From IMG/VR virus record IMGVR_UViG_2675903330_000005, positions 1 to 23,430 of that record: DNA of 23,430 nucleotides. One strand, written 5' to 3'. The notes beneath the pieces were generated by a model. The model did not search any database. It saw only the letters and a list, made by a program, of their open reading frames with translations, and was not told the origin of the DNA. Positions 3,911 to 11,873 of the stretch are shown here, piece after piece; the stretch's first letter is position 1; each line of letters starts with the position of its first letter. The DNA comes from a virus (taxonomy: Duplodnaviria > Heunggongvirae > Uroviricota > Caudoviricetes). The position numbers and the translations under genes were made by a program.

Positions 3911-4764
3911 GCACCATCCTGAAATGGGCGGGTAATAAAACCGCCATTATGTCCGAACTGAAAAAATACCTTCCTGCTGGCCCGCGACTGGTTGAACCTT
4001 TCGCGGGTTCTTGTGCTGTGATGATGGCGACGGATTACCCCAGCTATCTGGTTGCGGATATTAATCCTGATTTAATCAACCTCTATAAAAAGATTGCCGC
4101 TGATTGCGAAGCGTTTATATCTCGTGCCAAAGTTTTATTTGAGGAAGCAAACAGTGAGCTGGCTTATTACAACATAAGACAGGAGTTTAATTACTCAACT
4201 GAAATTACTGATTTCATGAAGGCGATATATTTCCTGTATCTCAATCGTCACGGTTACCGTGGTTTATGTCGCTATAACAAGAGCGGGTATTTCAACATTC
4301 CCTACGGTAATTATAAAAATCCGTATTTCCCTGAAAAAGAAATTCGCGCATTTGCAGAGAAAGCCCAGCGGGCAACGTTTATCTGCGCGAGCTTTGATGA
4401 AACGCTGGCGATGCTGCAGGTGGGGGATGTGGTGTATTGCGATCCGCCGTATGACGGTACGTTTTCCGGCTATCACACTGATGGTTTCACTGAAGATGAC
4501 CAGTATCACCTGGCATCCATTCTTGAACATCGGTCATCAGAAGGACATCCGGTCATTGTTTCTAACAATGACACATCCCTGATTCGTTCGCTGTATCGCA
4601 ATTTTACTCACCACTATATCAAGGCAAAACGCAGCATCGGCGTGTCAGCTGGCGAGGGTAAATCTGCAACAGAAATCATTGCTGTTTCCGGGCCGAGCTG
4701 CTGGTTGGGATTTGATCCTTCGCGTGGCGTGGATAGTTCTGCCGTGTACGGAGTGTGTGTATGA
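3907..4764 (+). CDS. dam: DNA adenine methyltransferase (Dam-like, GATC N6-adenine MTase)
   Basis: N-terminal LKWAGNK and FAGSCAV (AdoMet-binding) motifs plus catalytic DPPY motif (..[11 protein letters not shown]..); start ATGA-overlaps the upstream stop. Confidence 0.9.
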
Positions 4765-7175
4765 GTCATGACGATATGAACAATTGCAGCGGCTTTAACG
4801 AGGCCGCCGCAGCATTTTCATGGAACGGCTCGAAAAAGGCCATTAACCCTTATCTGGACCCGGCGGAAGTTGCGCCGGAGTCTGCACTTTCAAACCTGAT
4901 CACTCTGTACGCTGCCGATAACGAGCAGGAACAACTGCGCCGCGAGGCACTGAGTGAGCAGGTCTGGGAGCGTTATTTCTTTAATGAATCCCGTGATCCT
5001 GTCCAGCGCGAAATGGAGCAGGATAAGCTCATTAGCCGGGCAAAGCTGGCGCATGAGCAGCAGCGTTTTAATCCGGACATGGTCATTCTGGCGGACGTAA
5101 ACGCCCAGCCTTCCCATATCAGCAAGCCGCTGATGCAACGTATTGAATACTTCAGCAGCCTGGGCAGGCCAAAGGCTTATTCCCGCTATTTGCGTGAGAC
5201 GATTAAGCCATGTCTGGAGCGACTGGATTGTGTACGTGACAGTCAGCTATCTGTTTCTTTCCGTTTTATGGCAAGCCATCAAGGGCTGGAGGGTCTGCTG
5301 ATCCTGCCTGAAATGAGCCAGGATCAGGTGAAACGCCTGTCCACCCTGGTAGCAGCGCATATGAGCATGTGTCTTGAGGACGCTTGTGGTGATTTGTATG
5401 CCACCGATGACGTTAAGCCAGAAGAAATCCGCAAGACATGGGAAAAGGTGGCAGCGGAAACCCTGCGTCTGGATGTTATCCCGCCTGCGTTTGAGAAACT
5501 TCGTCGGAAAAGAAACCGCCGCAAACCAGTGCCCTATGAACTCATCCCGGGTTCGCTGGCGCGTATGTTGTGTGCCGACTGGTGGTATCGGAAATTATGG
5601 AAGATGCGTTGCGAATGGCGGGAAGAGCAGTTGCGTGCTGTCTGCCTGGTCAGCAAAAAAGCATCCCCCTATGTCAGCTATGAAGCCGTGATGCATAAAC
5701 GTGAGCAGCGCCGTAAGTCGCTGGAGTTTTTTCGTTCTCATGAACTGGTGAACGAAGACGGCGACACGCTGGATATGGAAGATGTGGTAAACGCCAGCAG
5801 CAGCAACCCGGCGCATCGCCGCAATGAGATGATGGCCTGTGTTAAAGGTCTGGAGCTTATCGCGGAAATGCGCAGTGACTGTGCCGTTTTCTACACTATC
5901 ACCTGTCCGTCGCGTTTCCATTCCACGCTCAATAACGGCAGACCAAACCCGACCTGGACAAACGCGACGGTAAGACAAAGTAGCGATTATCTGGTCGGCA
6001 TGTTTGCTGCATTTCGTAAGGCTATGCATAAAGCCGAGTTGCGCTGGTATGGCGTGCGGGTAGCTGAGCCGCATCATGACGGTACTGTGCACTGGCATCT
6101 CATGTGTTTCATGCGTAAAAAAGACCGCCGCGCCATCACTGCATTACTGCGTAAGTTTGCCATCCGTGAAGACCGCGAGGAGCTGGGCAATAACACGGGA
6201 CCACGCTTTAAGTCTGAGCTGATAAACCCGCGCAAAGGTACGCCAACAAGCTATATCGCGAAATACATCAGTAAGAACATTGACGGGCGTGGTCTGGCTG
6301 GGGAGATCAGCAAGGAAACGGGTAAATCCCTGCGTGATAACGCTGAATACGTTAATGCCTGGGCGTCTCTGCATCGTGTTCAGCAATTCCGCTTCTTTGG
6401 CATTCCGGGGCGTCAGGCTTACCGTGAACTGCGATTGCTGGCTGGTCAGGCGGCAAGGCAACAGGGTGACAAAAAAGCAGGTGCGCCGGTACTGGATAAC
6501 CCGCGCCTTGATGCAATCCTGGCTGCTGCTGATGCTGGTTGTTTTGCCACCTACATCATGAAGCAGGGCGGCGTACTGGTTCCCCGCAAATATCACCTCA
6601 TCAGAACTGCTTATGAAATCAACGAAGAACCGACCGCATATGGCGATCACGGTATTCGTATTTATGGCATCTGGTCACCCATTGCAGAGGGCAAGATCTG
6701 CACTCATGCGGTGAAGTGGAAAATGGTTCGTAAGGCCGTTGACGTTCAGGAGGCGGCAGCCGACCAGGGCGCTTGCGCCCCTTGGACTCGTGGCAATAAC
6801 TGTCCCCTTGCTGAAAATTTGAACCAACAGGAGAAAGATAAATCAACAGATGGGGATCCCAGAACTGACATTACCTGTATGGATGACAAGGAGTTGCACG
6901 ATTACCTGCACAGTATGAGCAAAAAAGAGCGCCAGGAACTGGCAGCAAGATTACGCCTGATGAAACCGAAACGGCGTAAAGACTACAAACAGCGAATTAC
7001 AGAGTATCAGCGTCAGCAGCTCGTCTATGAACTGAAGTCAAGAGGATTTGATGGCAGCGAGAAAGAGGTCGATTTGCTCCTTCGCGGTGGCAGTATTCCG
7101 TCAGGAGCAGGCCTGCGTATCTTCTATCGGAACCAGCGTTTGCAGGAAGATGATAAGTGGCGGAACCTGTATTAA
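4761..7175 (+). CDS. A: Replication initiation endonuclease gpA (HUH rolling-circle initiator)
   Basis: About 804 aa; HUH motif ..[10 protein letters not shown].. and tyrosine pair ..[10 protein letters not shown].. characteristic of P2 gpA; start overlaps dam stop (ATGA). Confidence 0.9.
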
Positions 7176-7266
7176 TCACGTGGGTTAACAATTCGTGCTC
7201 TTAATAATACCAGGCATATCAGGCTGATGAACGTAAAAAACGTTTTACATCAGTAAGATTATTATA

Positions 7267-7286
7267 TACTGTAAATATAAACAGTG
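7267..7286. promoter_or_regulatory. Candidate LexA (SOS) box: TACTGTAAATATAAACAGTG (CTGT-N8-ACAG)
   Basis: Match to the LexA consensus TACTGT(AT)4ACAGTA core, overlapping a -10-like TATAAA/TATACT region about 45 bp upstream of a small ORF with a consensus SD. Confidence 0.55.
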
Positions 7287-7327
7287 GTTGTGCATACAGT
7301 GTTGCTTGTGGTGTCATAGGAGGAAAG

Positions 7328-7498
7328 ATGCAGGACTATTTTTTGGAGTCTTTGAAGCTCCAGCGCATTGATTTTTTTCTTAAGCTTGTGGCGGCTAGTG
7401 AGTGTAGTGATGAAGAGAAGGGGCTGGCTCTGCAGTGGGTTTCTGAGTTGACTGATGAGCTGATGGCGAGAATTCGCGCTCATGAATACAACCACTAG
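7328..7498 (+). CDS. Small 56-aa ORF downstream of the LexA box; candidate SOS-inducible Tum-like antirepressor or small regulator
   Basis: ATG preceded by a perfect AGGAGG SD at optimal spacing; not in the supplied ORF track (under 60 aa); translates to MQDYFLESLKLQRIDFFLKLVAASECSDEEKGLALQWVSELTDELMARIRAHEYNH. Confidence 0.35.
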   Translation: MQDYFLESLKLQRIDFFLKLVAASECSDEEKGLALQWVSELTDELMARIRAHEYNH

Positions 7499-7671
7499 AT
7501 GGATCTTCCCAGTAGTTTTTCGAAACTGAAAACAACCGAGTGAAAGTTACGACACTTGAGATTTTCACTTGGGTTATAATCAGAATACTTGTTTTCGTCC
7601 ACAAATGTACATGCCATGCATTAATGTGGTGATAGCTTTCAATTTTTACTAAATGGTTTCAATTGCTTCTT

Positions 7672-8217
7672 ATGAATCATGTAATGTTAGATATAGAAAC
7701 ATTGGATGTTGAAAAAACAGCTTATATCCTTTCAGTTGGTGCGGCTTTTTTCGTGCCGGAGACTGGCGAGATTGGTCCGGGTTTCTATCAAGTTATTTCG
7801 CTTGATCATGAACAAGCAGGCAGAACCATTGCCCCCTCTACTGTAAAGTGGTGGATGAATCAAAGTACTGAAGCTAAAAACGAAAATTTTGATGGCACTA
7901 AGGACCTTTTAGAGGTTCTGAATGAATTTGTGGCATTTATTCTTCATAATCGTACTGGCCGAGTAAAAGTGTGGGGAAACGGGAAAGAGTTTGACTGCAC
8001 GATCATGCATCATGCCCTGTTACAGGCGGGTCTGGATTGCCCATGGTCATTCAGAGATACTCTTGACGTTAGAACCATCTTAGCACTTGGTGAAAGCAAA
8101 GGAATTTTTTCTCATGCTGATAAAAATTTCACTGGCATTAGGCACACAGCATTCGATGATGTTTTATTTCAGATCGCACAGGTTTCTCACATCTATATGA
8201 ATTTAAATAAAAAATAA
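7672..8217 (+). CDS. DEDDh-type 3'-5' exonuclease (DnaQ-like fold), about 181 aa
   Basis: Exo I motif VMLDIETLD, Exo II-like ..VWGNGKEFDCTIM.., Exo III motif ..HTAFDDVLFQI..; first gene of the AT-rich cargo cassette; start codon uncertain (7663 TTG / 7672 ATG / 7684 ATG). Confidence 0.7.
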   Translation: MNHVMLDIETLDVEKTAYILSVGAAFFVPETGEIGPGFYQVISLDHEQAGRTIAPSTVKWWMNQSTEAKNENFDGTKDLLEVLNEFVAFILHNRTGRVKVWGNGKEFDCTIMHHALLQAGLDCPWSFRDTLDVRTILALGESKGIFSHADKNFTGIRHTAFDDVLFQIAQVSHIYMNLNKK

Positions 8218-8232
8218 ATATAGGACTTAGCT

Positions 8233-9144
8233 ATGGATTGCTTAGATGTAACCTATTGGACTGAGCTAGATGTTTTCGCACAGTATCCTGTTGGTGCTCG
8301 CTCTAAGGCATTGGTTATTTCCCCTGATGTTGCCCCCCATGGTATCAAAGCATCGTGGCCGTATCTTTTTAAGAGAAGCATTAAAAAATACCCAGATCAA
8401 TTTTGGTGTGAGATCGTTGCCTACAGGATTGGATTGCAGCTTGGTTTTAATGTCCCCAAAGCAGTTCCTTCGTTAAAGACTAATGATTTGGGGCATACGT
8501 TTTGCGGGGCCCTCATTGAGTGGTTTCATCATAAAGATTATGAGAAATTTGCTCCCGCTGGTGATTACTTTGTTCGAAGAGATCCAAATTTTGATCGTGA
8601 GAAAGGAGCTAAGCATTCCATTGAAGGGCTGAGGATTATCGCGAAAGCTCTTAAAGTTGACTATGTTGAGTGGTTGGAGAATATGGCTCTCTTTGACGCA
8701 GTAATAGGTAATACAGATAGACATCAAGAAAACTGGGGGTTTATCTTCTCACCTTTAACCAGCGAGTGTCAGCTTGCACCATTTTTCGATAATGGTACGA
8801 GCTTATGCTACGAACGTTTTCCGGAACATGTTGCTGATTGGACCGATCATAGACTCAGGGAGCATGTTAGCCGGGGAAAGCATCATTTGCGTAAGACTCT
8901 GGGCAAAGATGAGTATCAGAGATTAGGTCATTTAGAGTTAATCAAAGAACTTTGTGATAAAAAAGAAGAATTAAAACAGCGGGTAGCTGAAAGACTGGCT
9001 CGTTTGAACCATGACTTTTGGGACTCAACTTTTGCGGAGTTGACGGAAATAAACTGCCCTGTTCCGCTGACTAGAGAACGTGCTGCATGGATTGTTCGTG
9101 TAACAAACATGCGTATTGAACTGATTAAAGGTGTTACTTCATGA
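8233..9144 (+). CDS. HipA-family serine/threonine kinase, short HipT-like form lacking the HipA N-terminal subdomain
   Basis: P-loop-like ..VGARSKALVIS.. (cf. HipA VAGAQEKTAL), ..WCEIVAYRIGLQLGFNVP.. (cf. HipA YCLLLAKELGLNVP), catalytic loop ..VIGNTDRHQENWGF.. (cf. HipA IGATDGHAKNFS) and Mg-binding ..LAPFFDNGTS.. (cf. HipA LTPFYDIIS); 303 aa. Confidence 0.8.
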   Translation: MDCLDVTYWTELDVFAQYPVGARSKALVISPDVAPHGIKASWPYLFKRSIKKYPDQFWCEIVAYRIGLQLGFNVPKAVPSLKTNDLGHTFCGALIEWFHHKDYEKFAPAGDYFVRRDPNFDREKGAKHSIEGLRIIAKALKVDYVEWLENMALFDAVIGNTDRHQENWGFIFSPLTSECQLAPFFDNGTSLCYERFPEHVADWTDHRLREHVSRGKHHLRKTLGKDEYQRLGHLELIKELCDKKEELKQRVAERLARLNHDFWDSTFAELTEINCPVPLTRERAAWIVRVTNMRIELIKGVTS

Positions 9145-9845
9145 CTATCTTAATAGAAAAAATTCCCATGCCAAGTAGGCTCTTACTGACATGGCAACCG
9201 ACCGACGGCGGCTCTCGCTATGTCGTTGGTGAACTTCTTCAAGATGAGTCTGAAGGCTACGAGTTTAATTATCTTACGGATAGCAAAGATTTTGCTAAAG
9301 CTGTGGATAAAGGCTTTCACGGTTTTCCTGCTTTTGACATAAAAGTTACGACTCATCGCAAAGACGTTATGCAAACCTTTTCAAGAAGGTTACCCTCTAG
9401 GAAAAGAGAAGATTTTGCCGATTACTTGCTGACGTTTCGTCTTCCTGCTGATTTTAGAGAGAATGACTTCGTTTTGCTCGCTTGTACTGGCGGAAAAGTG
9501 GCTAGTGATGGTTTTTATTTTGTCCCAGACTTGTCTTCTATTCGGCCACCTTTTGATTATGTCATGGAGGTCGCCGGAACGAGACACATGATTAAGGAAG
9601 GGCGTCTAGCTCTTGACGAGATATCAATTGGTGATGAAGTCATATTGCGCAATGAAGATACCAATACTGTTGATCCGCTGGCCATATTAGTAACGAAAAA
9701 CGACAATCATCTAGGATATGTCAACAAGGCATTGTGCGCCGCATTACGAGATCTTGGTAAAAACCATGATATCAGTGGAGTGGTCGTACGTAAAAATGGC
9801 TCTTCGGATAGGCCTTTGATTTATGCAAAAGTATCTGTTAGATGA
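9141..9845 (+). CDS. Two-domain protein: N-terminal HipA-N-subdomain-like (HipS-like) region fused to a C-terminal HIRAN-like domain
   Basis: N-term ..LLLTWQPTDGGSRYVVGELLQDESEGYEFNY.. resembles the HipA N-terminus (..LVTWMNNQRVGELTKLANGAHTFKY..); C-term ..DEVILRNEDTNTVDPLAILVTKNDNHLGYVNKALCAAL.. fits the HIRAN pattern; start ATGA-overlaps the kinase stop. Confidence 0.55.
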   Translation: MTILIEKIPMPSRLLLTWQPTDGGSRYVVGELLQDESEGYEFNYLTDSKDFAKAVDKGFHGFPAFDIKVTTHRKDVMQTFSRRLPSRKREDFADYLLTFRLPADFRENDFVLLACTGGKVASDGFYFVPDLSSIRPPFDYVMEVAGTRHMIKEGRLALDEISIGDEVILRNEDTNTVDPLAILVTKNDNHLGYVNKALCAALRDLGKNHDISGVVVRKNGSSDRPLIYAKVSVR

Positions 9846-10013
9846 TGCATGTTTATTCATGCTTGCTAGTGATACTGCATTTATAGAGTCTGTCAACTAT
9901 GGAGATTTTTTCGTCTCATGCAACTACATTAAATTACCATTAAGTGGGTTGACGTTGCGGGGGAAGCATTACACGTCAGTATTGGTGCGTCTGAAGTGTC
10001 ATGCCGAAAAGGT

Positions 10014-10121
10014 ATGAAAAAGCCGCTTGGTAACATAACTATTCGCAATGATGTTGTAGGAAGCGAACTGGAAATGATAGCAATGGATGCTGTTGATGTA
10101 GTGTATGTCTATGCTGCATGA
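10014..10121 (+). CDS. Possible 35-aa micro-ORF (MKKPLGNITIRNDVVGSELEMIAMDAVDVVYVYAA) at the 3' end of the cassette
   Basis: ATG with an AAAGG SD-like sequence upstream; ends about 35 bp before the intrinsic terminator; weak support. Confidence 0.2.
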   Translation: MKKPLGNITIRNDVVGSELEMIAMDAVDVVYVYAA

Positions 10122-10155
10122 GTTTGCATGAACGTTTGAGGCTCGTTTTTGTTAA

Positions 10156-10181
10156 GGCCCGCCAGAACTGGCGGGCTTTTG
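10156..10181 (+). terminator. Rho-independent terminator closing the cargo cassette
   Basis: GC-rich inverted repeat GCCCGCC-agaact-GGCGGGC followed by TTTTG. Confidence 0.6.
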
Positions 10182-10225
10182 CTCATGTCATGCAGGTGCA
10201 TGAAAACCACTACATAAAGCGGGCA

Positions 10226-10244
10226 GGCGTGGCGGGGATACGAG
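10226..10244. other. Candidate cos site (19-nt cohesive end): GGCGTGGCGGGGATACGAG followed by CGCGCGC
   Basis: Matches the P2 cohesive end GGCGAGGCGGGGAAAGCAC at 14 of 19 positions and the 186 sequence as I recall it at about 15 of 19; lies between the post-gpA cargo region and gene Q, where cos sits in P2. Confidence 0.6.
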
Positions 10245-10305
10245 CGCGCGCAAACATGTTTACTTGCAATTAATGTAGATATATTCTGAAATTGATAACT
10301 TACAC

Positions 10306-10515
10306 ATGAAAGGAGACGTGAGAGTGGCAAAATATACACCGGGCCAGAAAGTAAAACATGCAACAGGACATGGTCCAATCATGGTAATTGATCACTACCA
10401 ATCGGCTACAATGGCAGTTTGTACGTGGTTTATTGGTGCTAAGAACCAGCGCGGAGTTTTTCATGAAGATACTCTAGTTTTATTTGTTCCAAAAGCTGAG
10501 AGTGATGATGAATGA
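10306..10515 (+). CDS. YodC/DUF2158-like small protein; start may be GTG at 10324 (63 aa)
   Basis: ..KYTPGQKVKHATGHGPIMVI....GVFHEDTLV.. resembles E. coli YodC (..GGPRMIV....EAFHETELV..); AGGAG SD 8 nt upstream of GTG 10324. Confidence 0.55.
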   Translation: MKGDVRVAKYTPGQKVKHATGHGPIMVIDHYQSATMAVCTWFIGAKNQRGVFHEDTLVLFVPKAESDDE

Positions 10516-10774
10516 TTCTCTGATAAAAATAGTTGACTGGATGGTTAATACCACTCGTTCTAATGGTGTGTTGTATCAGTCCGAGGTTGTTGAATTTCTA
10601 ATCAATGACTTTGGGGACGAGTTCATCAAAACTAATGAGAATGGTAATTACGCTATAAGCAGTACTGTGCTAGCAAATTTTAGAAAGGCTAGCAAAGACG
10701 ATATAGTTTGGGATCGTGAACAGTTAGCTTGGCGTTTACGCAATGAAAGCGATTTACCCGGACGGATGCAGTAG
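10508..10774 (+). CDS. Hypothetical 89-aa protein, overlapping the upstream small gene's stop
   Basis: ORF whose ATG (10505/10508) overlaps the stop of the YodC-like gene; no recognisable motif. Confidence 0.4.
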   Translation: MNDSLIKIVDWMVNTTRSNGVLYQSEVVEFLINDFGDEFIKTNENGNYAISSTVLANFRKASKDDIVWDREQLAWRLRNESDLPGRMQ

Positions 10775-10790
10775 AGATAATACAGAGAAT

Positions 10791-10831
10791 AGTGAACAAG
10801 CTGATAATTTCAACTTGTTCACTTCTTTTTT
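10791..10831. terminator. Hairpin terminator between the convergent small-gene pair and gene Q (possibly bidirectional)
   Basis: Perfect 10-bp inverted repeat AGTGAACAAG...CTTGTTCACT with 13-nt loop, followed by TCTTTTTT on the + strand. Confidence 0.5.
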
Positions 10832-11873
10832 ATGACTGATTATTTTCTAAGCCATAATATTCAAATTTGACTACCTCTTCATCTAACCATTCATTAATTT
10901 CGGCAATGCGTTTTTGTAAAGGCATCAGTTCATTCCGAACAAATACCCGGCTGGCTTTCTCCACATCCCCAAACCCCCCTACATTATTAGGCATAATCCC
11001 CATCATCTGCGGCGGCACTCGGTGTGCTGCCATCATGTCGTCCCGGCTCACGTTCTTGATATTCAGAAACTCATCCTTCGCCGCGACTTCTGACAACGGG
11101 ATGATCTGAAGCCCGTCCTTTTTGCCGTTAGGCGAGTACATAAACAGATTGCGGAAGTTACCTGGTCCTTTGGCGCTTTTCATCGCATTGCGGAGGTTGT
11201 TCACATCCTCCTGGTTTTGCGCGGCATCGGTCATGTACATGATGAAGCCTGCATGACTGCCGTTAATGTAATACTTTCGACGGAACAGCGTGGCGGACTC
11301 GTTGAGCAGGGCAGACGGAATGGCAGAAAGATAACCGGGCAGGCCGTAGATCTCCTGATTAATATCCGGTTCCATTAGATGAAAAATGCTGCCTTTCGTG
11401 AACTGATACGGCTGGGTTGTCATACCGTATTGCACAAACCAGTAGGTATCCAGGTCTAACCCGCGTCGGGTGTATTTTGCCAGCGCAGGCTCAAGGGCGA
11501 TAACTTCACCGAATCGGTTCGTGCGTTTCTCCAGGTAGGCGTTACCAAATACCAGATAGTCCTGCACAAAACGCGAAAAAGCCTGCTGGCTGAGCAGCGG
11601 GTGAGGGATATAGGTGCTGGTCAGAATGTTGCACTTTACTGCAATCGGTGAGCTGTGGTGAACGGCGGCGCGGAATGTTCGCGCCAGTCCGTCAAAACTT
11701 ACGGGTGGCTCATACCAGCGATCCGTCTGTACGCATTCCACATAGTCCAGCAGTTCGCGGCGGTCAAGTACTGGAATGGGATCACCGAAGCTGAATGCTT
11801 CGGCTGAAGTTTGGCTTTTATGCTTGAGCTGATTCGTCGCCGCAGCGCGGTTTTTCTTACTCTTTCCCATCAA
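10830..11873 (-). CDS. Q: Capsid portal protein gpQ
   Basis: 347 aa, leftward, ATGA-coupled to P; position and size match P2 Q. Confidence 0.9.
   Translation of the reverse strand: MMGKSKKNRAAATNQLKHKSQTSAEAFSFGDPIPVLDRRELLDYVECVQTDRWYEPPVSFDGLARTFRAAVHHSSPIAVKCNILTSTYIPHPLLSQQAFSRFVQDYLVFGNAYLEKRTNRFGEVIALEPALAKYTRRGLDLDTYWFVQYGMTTQPYQFTKGSIFHLMEPDINQEIYGLPGYLSAIPSALLNESATLFRRKYYINGSHAGFIMYMTDAAQNQEDVNNLRNAMKSAKGPGNFRNLFMYSPNGKKDGLQIIPLSEVAAKDEFLNIKNVSRDDMMAAHRVPPQMMGIMPNNVGGFGDVEKASRVFVRNELMPLQKRIAEINEWLDEEVVKFEYYGLENNQS

Follow-up and report, generated by a model that had tools for sequence, protein, structure and literature searches.

The 23,430-nucleotide stretch of DNA analysed here (hereafter the window; positions 1 to 23,430 of IMG/VR record IMGVR_UViG_2675903330_000005) is a Fels-2/P2-like prophage, with genes for an integrase, the CI repressor, CII, a Dam methylase, gpA, the portal Q and the terminase P. 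The region between gpA and Q is the classical cargo hotspot of P2, and in the window it holds three genes: a DEDDh 3'-5' exonuclease (positions 7672-8217), which is the subject of this work, a short HipA-like kinase, and HipN, a protein with a HIRAN domain. The kinase and HipN together are the PADLOC candidate PDC-M03, that is, the hipIN module of Gerdes et al. (PMC8262856). Our main finding is that, all along the divergence of its branch, the exonuclease has kept its place directly before the kinase, and we consider it probable that it is a co-inherited and functionally linked accessory, a clade-specific third component of the phage-borne hipIN/hipL (PDC-M03) branch. An earlier reading made from the sequence alone (the sequence-only reading) had proposed that the exonuclease could be an effector nuclease, a factor generating the 3' ends seen by HIRAN, or an unrelated phage gene that happened to be adjacent. 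The last of these options agrees poorly with a gene that shares a mobile block with the pair, co-diverges with it and is strictly linked to it, in both directions, at the level of the clade.

Linkage between the Exonuclease and the Kinase-HipN Pair

The linkage was sampled from both sides. Starting from HipN, a profile of 32 sequences gathered 115 loci (80 metagenomic and 35 from IMG/VR), in which open reading frames (ORFs) were called, searched with the exonuclease hidden Markov model, the kinase and the HipN profile, and grouped at 90% identity; a group counted as assessable when 650 bp or more could be seen before the kinase. A single-protein HipN query of genome contigs had given one locus, ending just upstream. 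Within one HipN clade, 11 of 13 groups, all of them P2-like phages, have a Rv2179c-like exonuclease (the family of the window gene, see below) at 3-19 bp upstream of the kinase. Outside that clade no exonuclease appeared in any of the 47 assessable groups, nor any remnant of it at relaxed thresholds. The gap between exonuclease and kinase measured 3-19 bp in all 55 of the 55 cassette loci. The upstream neighbours of exonuclease-less hipIN modules are heterogeneous, with specificity subunits of type I restriction-modification (R-M) systems in 8 of 35 cases and several integrases, and no recurrent family was found downstream of these modules. Altogether, hipIN is in most lineages a self-contained two-gene module, and the exonuclease is confined to one clade.

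Starting from the exonuclease, an alignment specific for clade B (the cassettes in which kinase and HipN are fused, see below) gave a clean gradient of identity, while general scans of the family were dominated by lambdoid homologues. IMG/VR loci at least 51% identical to the clade-B exonuclease carried the kinase directly downstream in 18 of 18 cases, and those with 50% identity or less in none of 61. In the general scan of the family in IMG/VR, neither kinase nor HipN accompanied any of the 80 loci among the matches listed, most of which corresponded to the C-terminal domain of lambdoid proteins of ~820 amino acids. On the side of the window gene (clade A), the close homologues that were looked up (81-94% identity) all lie in the same cassette, and Yersinia ruckeri shows the same three-gene order with a HipN 64% and an exonuclease 53% identical to those of the window. 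According to the sequence-only reading, a link would be refuted if many P2-like phages had the exonuclease and no kinase pair. This is what we see at the level of the family, with Rv2179c-like exonucleases in 605 phage records (tblastn, all below 60% identity), some of them upstream of gpA, but no such example was seen at the level of the clade, where the linkage of exonuclease and kinase is strict both ways. A candidate for an exonuclease without kinase in Escherichia coli EC101 (L333, NZ_CP196707.1 1-5568) was rejected: it is a degraded prophage, with a frameshifted gpA and an exonuclease with both a frameshift and an internal stop, where the kinase is cut by the origin of the record.

The three genes have also diverged together. 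For exonuclease, kinase and HipN, matrices of pairwise identity among 19 non-redundant cassettes gave r=0.95-0.96 (Mantel p=2e-4), a correlation that largely reflects the two-clade structure of the set and shows that the three genes have not been swapped among cassettes. In this line, synonymous divergence (dS) was matched for exonuclease, kinase and HipN in three comparisons (0.11/0.11/0.19, 0.58/0.66/0.55 and 0.95/0.89/0.97), and the HipN and exonuclease trees keep the same internal topology, with the window, loci L002 and L004 and Yersinia in one group, and locus L011 and the fused forms in the other. Two rearrangements left the arrangement untouched. In clade B, kinase and HipN are fused into a HipL-like protein of ~548 amino acids and the exonuclease is still found 3-12 bp upstream, and in L011 the three genes stay together beside an integrase, out of the gpA-portal hotspot where all the other cassette loci, in P2-like phages, are located. 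The fused form also occurs in the isolated Escherichia phage 899 (L323 2983-5187, PV533660.1) and in Yersinia phage GMG73; in the deposited annotation the fused ORF starts ~85 bp after the start of the longest ORF and is labelled as hypothetical.

A more complex picture emerges from the exonuclease tree. Strict monophyly of all cassette exonucleases received 0/100 support by neighbour-joining, because solo genes of Serratia and Gibbsiella group with clade A (93-96% bootstrap for the Serratia genes), and the exonucleases of clades A and B are ~40% identical, no closer to each other than either is to lambdoid homologues. On the other hand, the cassette exonucleases share signature residues seldom found in the rest of the family, namely R128, V13, K143 and F/Y166. 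R128 occurs in 100% of them and in 15% of the other members, which mostly have Trp, and at position 166 the others mostly have His. A functional coupling would be favoured by either history, be it one ancient recruitment or two with convergence.

Finally, the exonuclease moves with the pair. The closest backbones, those of Escherichia phage 500465-1, Fels-2 and many Klebsiella prophages, align with the window up to position 7504 (93% identity to phage 500465-1) and then again from 10097, and the G+C content falls from 0.52-0.55 in the backbone to ~0.40 in the hotspot. In the corresponding interval, these backbones have DinI and other cargo, and no exonuclease. L002, a metagenomic P2-like contig, matches the window at 85% identity over 7513-9970 and at 68% over the backbone; therefore, the upstream region, the exonuclease, the kinase and HipN move as a unit and, judging from these alignments, the exonuclease sits within the same horizontally exchanged block as the kinase pair. 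This block was present at 99.6% identity or more in 5 of 5426 complete E. coli genomes, and identical protein copies occur on hundreds of contigs of E. coli, Klebsiella, Salmonella, Enterobacter, Serratia and Cronobacter.

An Intact DEDDh Exonuclease Gene

The exonuclease ORF opens at 7663 on the + strand, and gives a protein of 181 amino acids when read from the ATG at 7672. It matches the Pfam family PF16473 (Rv2179c-like 3'-5' exoribonuclease) over profile positions 1-176 of 177, with E=4.8e-50 and 170.1 bits against a cut-off of 27, as well as PHROG 255 (exonuclease) at 3e-60; elsewhere in Pfam, RNase_T scored below threshold only, and no match of the NrnC/DNA_pol_A_exo1 type was obtained. 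All three Exo motifs, including the catalytic His of the DEDDh subclass, had been noticed from the sequence, and an alignment of 18 sequences down to 31% identity bears them out: D7-x-E9 (Exo I), D108 (Exo II) and H158-x4-D163 (Exo III) are invariant. The AlphaFold2 model (mean predicted local distance difference test, pLDDT, of 92.2) presents the RNase H-like alpha/beta exonuclease fold. A Foldseek comparison of the model with the PDB returned T4 DexA as best hit (8KEL, E=3e-11, template modelling (TM) score 0.80), followed by RNase T (TM 0.73-0.77), and a profile search of PDB sequences also placed DexA 8KEL first (3e-18). The ratio of nonsynonymous to synonymous divergence (dN/dS) was 0.11-0.24 for the exonuclease versus 0.07-0.22 for its kinase and HipN partners. 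This is a genuine, intact DEDDh 3'-5' exonuclease gene under purifying selection, whose enzymatic activity is predicted.

PGAP places the start codon at the ATG 7684, which gives 177 amino acids. We favour 7672, because homologues keep the N-terminus (M-N/H-H/N-L/V-M) and have good Shine-Dalgarno sites before the first Met.

The Cassette and Its Surroundings

The main features of the locus are collected in Table 1. The kinase matches Pfam HipA_C (3.6e-10) and PADLOC PDC-M03A (4.1e-36), and its translation shows the GNTDRHQENWGF and FFDNG motifs. HipN matches Pfam HIRAN at residues 140-218 (2.3e-7) and PADLOC PDC-M03B (9.5e-37), and would be a putative antitoxin as well as a putative sensor of DNA 3' ends, an assignment of domains that follows PMC8262856. 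In that work, hipIN was defined bioinformatically as HipI, a short kinase, plus HipN, composed of a HipS-like putative antitoxin domain and a HIRAN domain. HipA-family kinases halt translation through phosphorylation of aminoacyl-tRNA synthetases, HipS-like domains neutralise short Hip kinases, and HIRAN domains bind DNA 3'-OH ends, the proteobacterial HipN retaining most of the DNA-contact motifs (PMC8262856).

Table 1. Coordinates of the exonuclease-hipIN cassette and of its neighbouring features in the window
Feature	Positions	Strand	Remarks
gpA	4755-7175	+	P2-like backbone gene
Cassette-specific upstream intergenic region, candidate promoter/5' untranslated region	7513-7671	+	TATAAT at 7575-7580; inside the 85% match to L002
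DEDDh 3'-5' exonuclease (Rv2179c/DexA-like), 181 amino acids, cassette gene 1	7672-8217	+	PF16473
15-bp spacer with AGGA ribosome-binding site for the kinase	8218-8232	+	Read from the sequence
HipI-type short HipA-like Ser/Thr kinase, 303 amino acids	8233-9144	+	HipA_C, PDC-M03A
HipN, 234 amino acids, HipS-like N-terminal and C-terminal HIRAN domain	9141-9845	+	HIRAN, PDC-M03B
3' tail of the mobile block	9846-9970	+	Within the 85%-identity match to L002
Hotspot boundary element with hairpin and T-run at 10154-10183	10097-10253	+	Conserved in P2-like phages
Portal Q	10830-11873	-	P2-like backbone gene

Direct reading of the letters agrees with the 15 bp originally given between the two first genes: the last letter of the exonuclease stop is 8217 and the kinase begins with the ATG at 8233, with an AGGA Shine-Dalgarno sequence in the gap, and kinase and HipN overlap by 4 bp. 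The description of the exonuclease as promoter-proximal held in part. It is the first gene after an intergenic gap of 173 bp, but a consensus scan found no sigma-70 promoter in that gap, where no -35 box stands at the right distance from a perfect TATAAT at 7575-7580 (TACAAT in L004). Since the same kind of scan found no terminator between gpA and the exonuclease, read-through from the gpA early operon would be possible. On the + strand, a convincing terminator first appears with the hairpin and T-run at 10154-10183 (-22.6 kcal/mol, z=-2.9), which was missed by the consensus scan and located by eye and folding. Co-transcription of exonuclease, kinase and HipN is plausible on these sequence features, that is, the 15-bp gap with its Shine-Dalgarno sequence, the lack of a terminator before 10154-10183 and an upstream region that travels along with the genes.

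Some other observations concern the hotspot itself. In Fels-2 and phage 500465-1, a small phrog_698 ORF is followed by a DinI/TumB-like gene (L325 2843-3160 and L326 2828-3061), which is missing from the window, its place being filled by the exonuclease-hipIN block (7505-10096). The ~157-bp element at 10097-10253 is found at 87-92% identity in Fels-2, phage 500465-1 and L021, always directly after the first cargo slot, and probably serves to terminate the transcription unit and/or as a recombination anchor for the swapping of cargo. A second cargo slot (10254-10830) precedes the portal and contains a DUF2158-like ORF (10306-10515) overlapped by a DUF6953 ORF (10484-10774); E. coli DS26-1 has an IS66 insertion that separates HipN from these two ORFs. 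An Rfam search of positions 7000-11000 gave nothing above chance.

Exonuclease-less hipIN modules also showed some characteristics of their own. In a Rhodococcus plasmid and in a Mycolicibacter chromosome, hipIN lies between hsdS and hsdM (L324 1631-6257 and L327 1764-6250), and modules within type I R-M operons were also seen in metagenome loci L039, L046, L054, L057, L079 and others. Such a placement between hsdS and hsdM, in the setting of a defence island, speaks for a function of the hipIN pair in immunity. In another instance, independent metagenome assemblies of one hipIN locus (L012-L014 and L038), with a convergent Fic-domain gene downstream, end 66-83 bp upstream of the kinase start, which suggests a repeat or a strain-variable junction at this point.

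Proposed Role of the Exonuclease and Alternative Explanations

In the mechanism that we propose, HipN's HipS-like domain would hold the HipI kinase inactive, and its HIRAN domain would sense DNA that builds up in the course of infection, either as free 3'-OH ends or as short fragments. Occupancy of the HIRAN domain would then release the kinase, leading to an arrest of translation (abortive infection). The exonuclease would act on single-stranded 3'-OH ends, the same feature as the HIRAN ligand, and because both would act on the same chemical feature, the most likely task of the exonuclease would be the control of the HIRAN ligand pool: it would either remove background 3' ends or oligonucleotides, keeping the system silent below a certain threshold, or serve to reset it. 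Within the accessory-component reading, such a tuning or resetting of the 3'-end signal is a tentative proposal, which we hold as one possible role among others. The initial suggestion that the exonuclease generates the 3' ends seen by HIRAN is argued against by the chemistry of the enzyme, as a 3'-5' exonuclease would destroy 3' single-stranded tails; clearing of the ligand fits better than its generation because such an enzyme shortens those tails.

A broader version of this idea looks more doubtful to us, although worth stating. HipA-kinase/HIRAN modules might have acquired DEDD exonucleases of different families on repeated occasions, NrnC-like diDNases in Gram-positives and Rv2179c/DexA-like enzymes in P2-like phages, in the latter possibly twice, with short 3'-OH DNA as the infection signal and the exonuclease clearing that signal and setting the threshold. 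The double recruitment is considered because clades A and B stand apart in the exonuclease tree yet share the signature residues. A signal-clearing exonuclease of this kind would be, by analogy, the counterpart for DNA-breakdown products of the ring nucleases and phosphodiesterases of cyclic-nucleotide immunity.

Several points weigh against seeing the exonuclease as a functional component of the module. Its family is abundant as a solo gene in both phages and chromosomes, and the nearest non-cassette relatives of the window exonuclease are stand-alone chromosomal genes of Serratia and Gibbsiella (45-49% identity), which adjoin dadX/dadA (L005 5494-6561 and L006 6001-6561) and may represent a domesticated copy. 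Two members of the HipN clade, the marine contigs L023 and L032, do not have the exonuclease. Most hipIN modules, often inside type I R-M operons, lack both the exonuclease and any other recurrent partner, and therefore the core mechanism does not need it. All cassette loci but one occupy the same hotspot of a single phage family, so part of the linkage could be a simple co-inheritance of neighbouring cargo. Moreover, the PADLOC definition of PDC-M03 comprises two genes, none of the PADLOC models is matched by the exonuclease, and our literature search found no experimental report on hipIN, HipL or PDC-M03 as a defence or toxin-antitoxin (TA) system. As a separate observation, a GhoT/OrtT-like small toxin gene lies upstream of the solo exonuclease, at ~330 bp in Serratia (L005) and at ~5 kb in Gibbsiella (L006 592-768).

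Among the alternatives, the one that best survives, and which we nevertheless judge unlikely, is that of a stand-alone defence nuclease of the DexA-like 'HREX' type, directed against modified or incoming phage DNA and sharing the hotspot with a separate hipIN. EcD, an E. coli homologue of DexA, gave protection from T4 as a single plasmid-borne gene, and cut DNA with 5-hydroxymethylcytosine (5hmC) and not unmodified DNA (PMC12153337). The position of T4 DexA as best PDB match by both structure and sequence, the self-sufficiency of hipIN in most lineages and the frequent stacking of several systems in P2 hotspots (PMC9122126) all speak for this explanation. The residue implicated in the recognition of 5hmC does not: the position of DexA W152, reported to stack on 5hmC, is Arg in 17 of 17 cassette representatives, with Trp in 34 of the 72 family members outside the cassette. 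The position equivalent to DexA D169 falls beside an alignment gap, with E141 adjacent. An identification of the window exonuclease with EcD was tried and discarded, since the hallmark Ala of EcD (Ala78, aligned to D90, the tetramer-forming Asp of DexA) is absent, the aligned residue here being E81, which keeps the acidic character, and residue 78 is Asp. Independent cargo would also be expected to shuffle, but the cassette exonuclease was never seen with other cargo, and its dS equals that of its two partners.

It is less probable still that we are dealing with phage housekeeping, in which a relocated copy of the replication or recombination exonuclease found in many temperate phages would work for the phage's DNA metabolism and owe its place beside hipIN to history alone. 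Outside the cassette, the genes closest to the clade-B exonuclease (43-50% identity, just below the 51% boundary) are P2-like genes from IMG/VR that abut the gpA start from upstream and have no kinase (L231-L236 and L249). In addition, the domain forms the C-terminus of the lambdoid early proteins mentioned above, no second exonuclease was found in any of the 24 cassette loci whose sequence covers the pre-gpA region, so that the pre-gpA and cassette positions look mutually exclusive in this small sample, and the terminator-free interval after gpA would allow expression by early-operon read-through. Against such a history, it is the Dam methylase that precedes gpA in the window, and the exonuclease lies downstream of gpA, in the low-GC variable block and not in the early-operon position. 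Furthermore, the Fels-2 and 500465-1 backbones do without any exonuclease, in L011 the gene and the kinase pair have moved jointly to a site near the integrase, and cassette exonucleases have signature residues of their own.

The third alternative, an effector nuclease that the kinase-HIRAN pair would activate upon sensing infection (e.g., by phosphorylation) to degrade phage or host nucleic acids, seems very improbable to us: in spite of the first position of the exonuclease in the operon and of the DEDDh exonucleases of defence systems among its structural and sequence matches (CBASS Cap18, 7T2S; Cas2-DEDDh, 8FYC), characterised HipA-family kinases are themselves toxic through phosphorylation of aminoacyl-tRNA synthetases (PMC8262856), kinase and HipN occur without any nuclease in most lineages, and a small DEDDh exonuclease without processivity or endonuclease partner would make a weak killing device.

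In the reading that we favour, the exonuclease belongs to one phage-borne clade as an accessory, outside the core hipIN system, and is thus a new variation on a known candidate system. hipIN/PDC-M03 is a widespread kinase-based candidate for a defence or TA module, and what is new is that a whole phage-borne branch of it has a dedicated 3'-5' exonuclease, a component that the defence-finder models for PDC-M03 miss in enterobacterial prophages. An unrelated DEDD nuclease beside the same pair in Gram-positives, together with the phage-borne exonuclease, points to 3' ends or oligonucleotides as the relevant ligand, and the importance of the finding would rise if the DEDD-kinase-HIRAN pairing does reflect a sensing of DNA-breakdown products.

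Comparison with Known Systems

The closest system is hipIN itself. The second and third genes of the cassette match the A and B models of PDC-M03, in the order and with the 4-bp overlap of hipIN, and the clade-B relatives have the fused kinase-HipS-HIRAN architecture of HipL. In contrast, the published definitions comprise two genes (one for HipL) and no exonuclease, which in the phage-borne clade is fixed upstream. With respect to its location, the cassette resembles the cargo known from the P2 hotspot between A and Q, such as old, tin and PARIS (PMC9122126), in occupying the same slot, with low G+C content and signs of horizontal exchange. The P2-hotspot surveys searched, including PMC9122126, did not mention HipA, HIRAN or an exonuclease plus hipIN cargo.

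A second precedent is found in Gram-positive bacteria. About one third of the NrnC-like diDNases of Actinomycetes and Clostridia, which cut only DNA dinucleotides, adjoin genes for HipA and HIRAN proteins, a relationship whose functional side was left open by the authors (PMC11706625). Both arrangements share a small DEDD nuclease next to HipA- and HIRAN-domain genes on mobile elements or defence islands, although the nuclease is NrnC-like in one case and a Rv2179c/DexA-like DEDDh enzyme (PF16473) in the other, and the hosts are Gram-positives there and enterobacterial P2-like phages here. As none of the four actinobacterial hipIN loci that we looked up had a DEDD neighbour, the nuclease is an occasional accessory in that setting too, the precedent coming solely from PMC11706625.

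Regarding the nuclease, DexA and EcD belong to the same Pfam family, have the same fold and keep identical DEDDh catalytic residues. DexA is, however, a longer protein of 227 amino acids with extra loops, where W152 corresponds to Arg128 of the window exonuclease, and both DexA and EcD are encoded by solo genes, whereas the exonuclease described here is locked to a kinase-HIRAN pair. PF16473 takes its name from Rv2179c of Mycobacterium tuberculosis, described as an exoribonuclease, while DexA and EcD are deoxyribonucleases, and either DNA or RNA may be the substrate of the window protein. Small DEDDh exonucleases within immune operons are otherwise known from Cap18 of CBASS (cyclic-oligonucleotide-based antiphage signalling systems) and from the Cas2-DEDDh and DnaQ prespacer trimmers; of these, 7T2S came up in the structural comparison of the window protein, and 8FYC and 8H18 in the profile search of PDB sequences. 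Their partners are, in contrast, a CD-NTase or Cas1-Cas2, and they have no close sequence relationship with the exonuclease that leads the phage-borne hipIN cassette.

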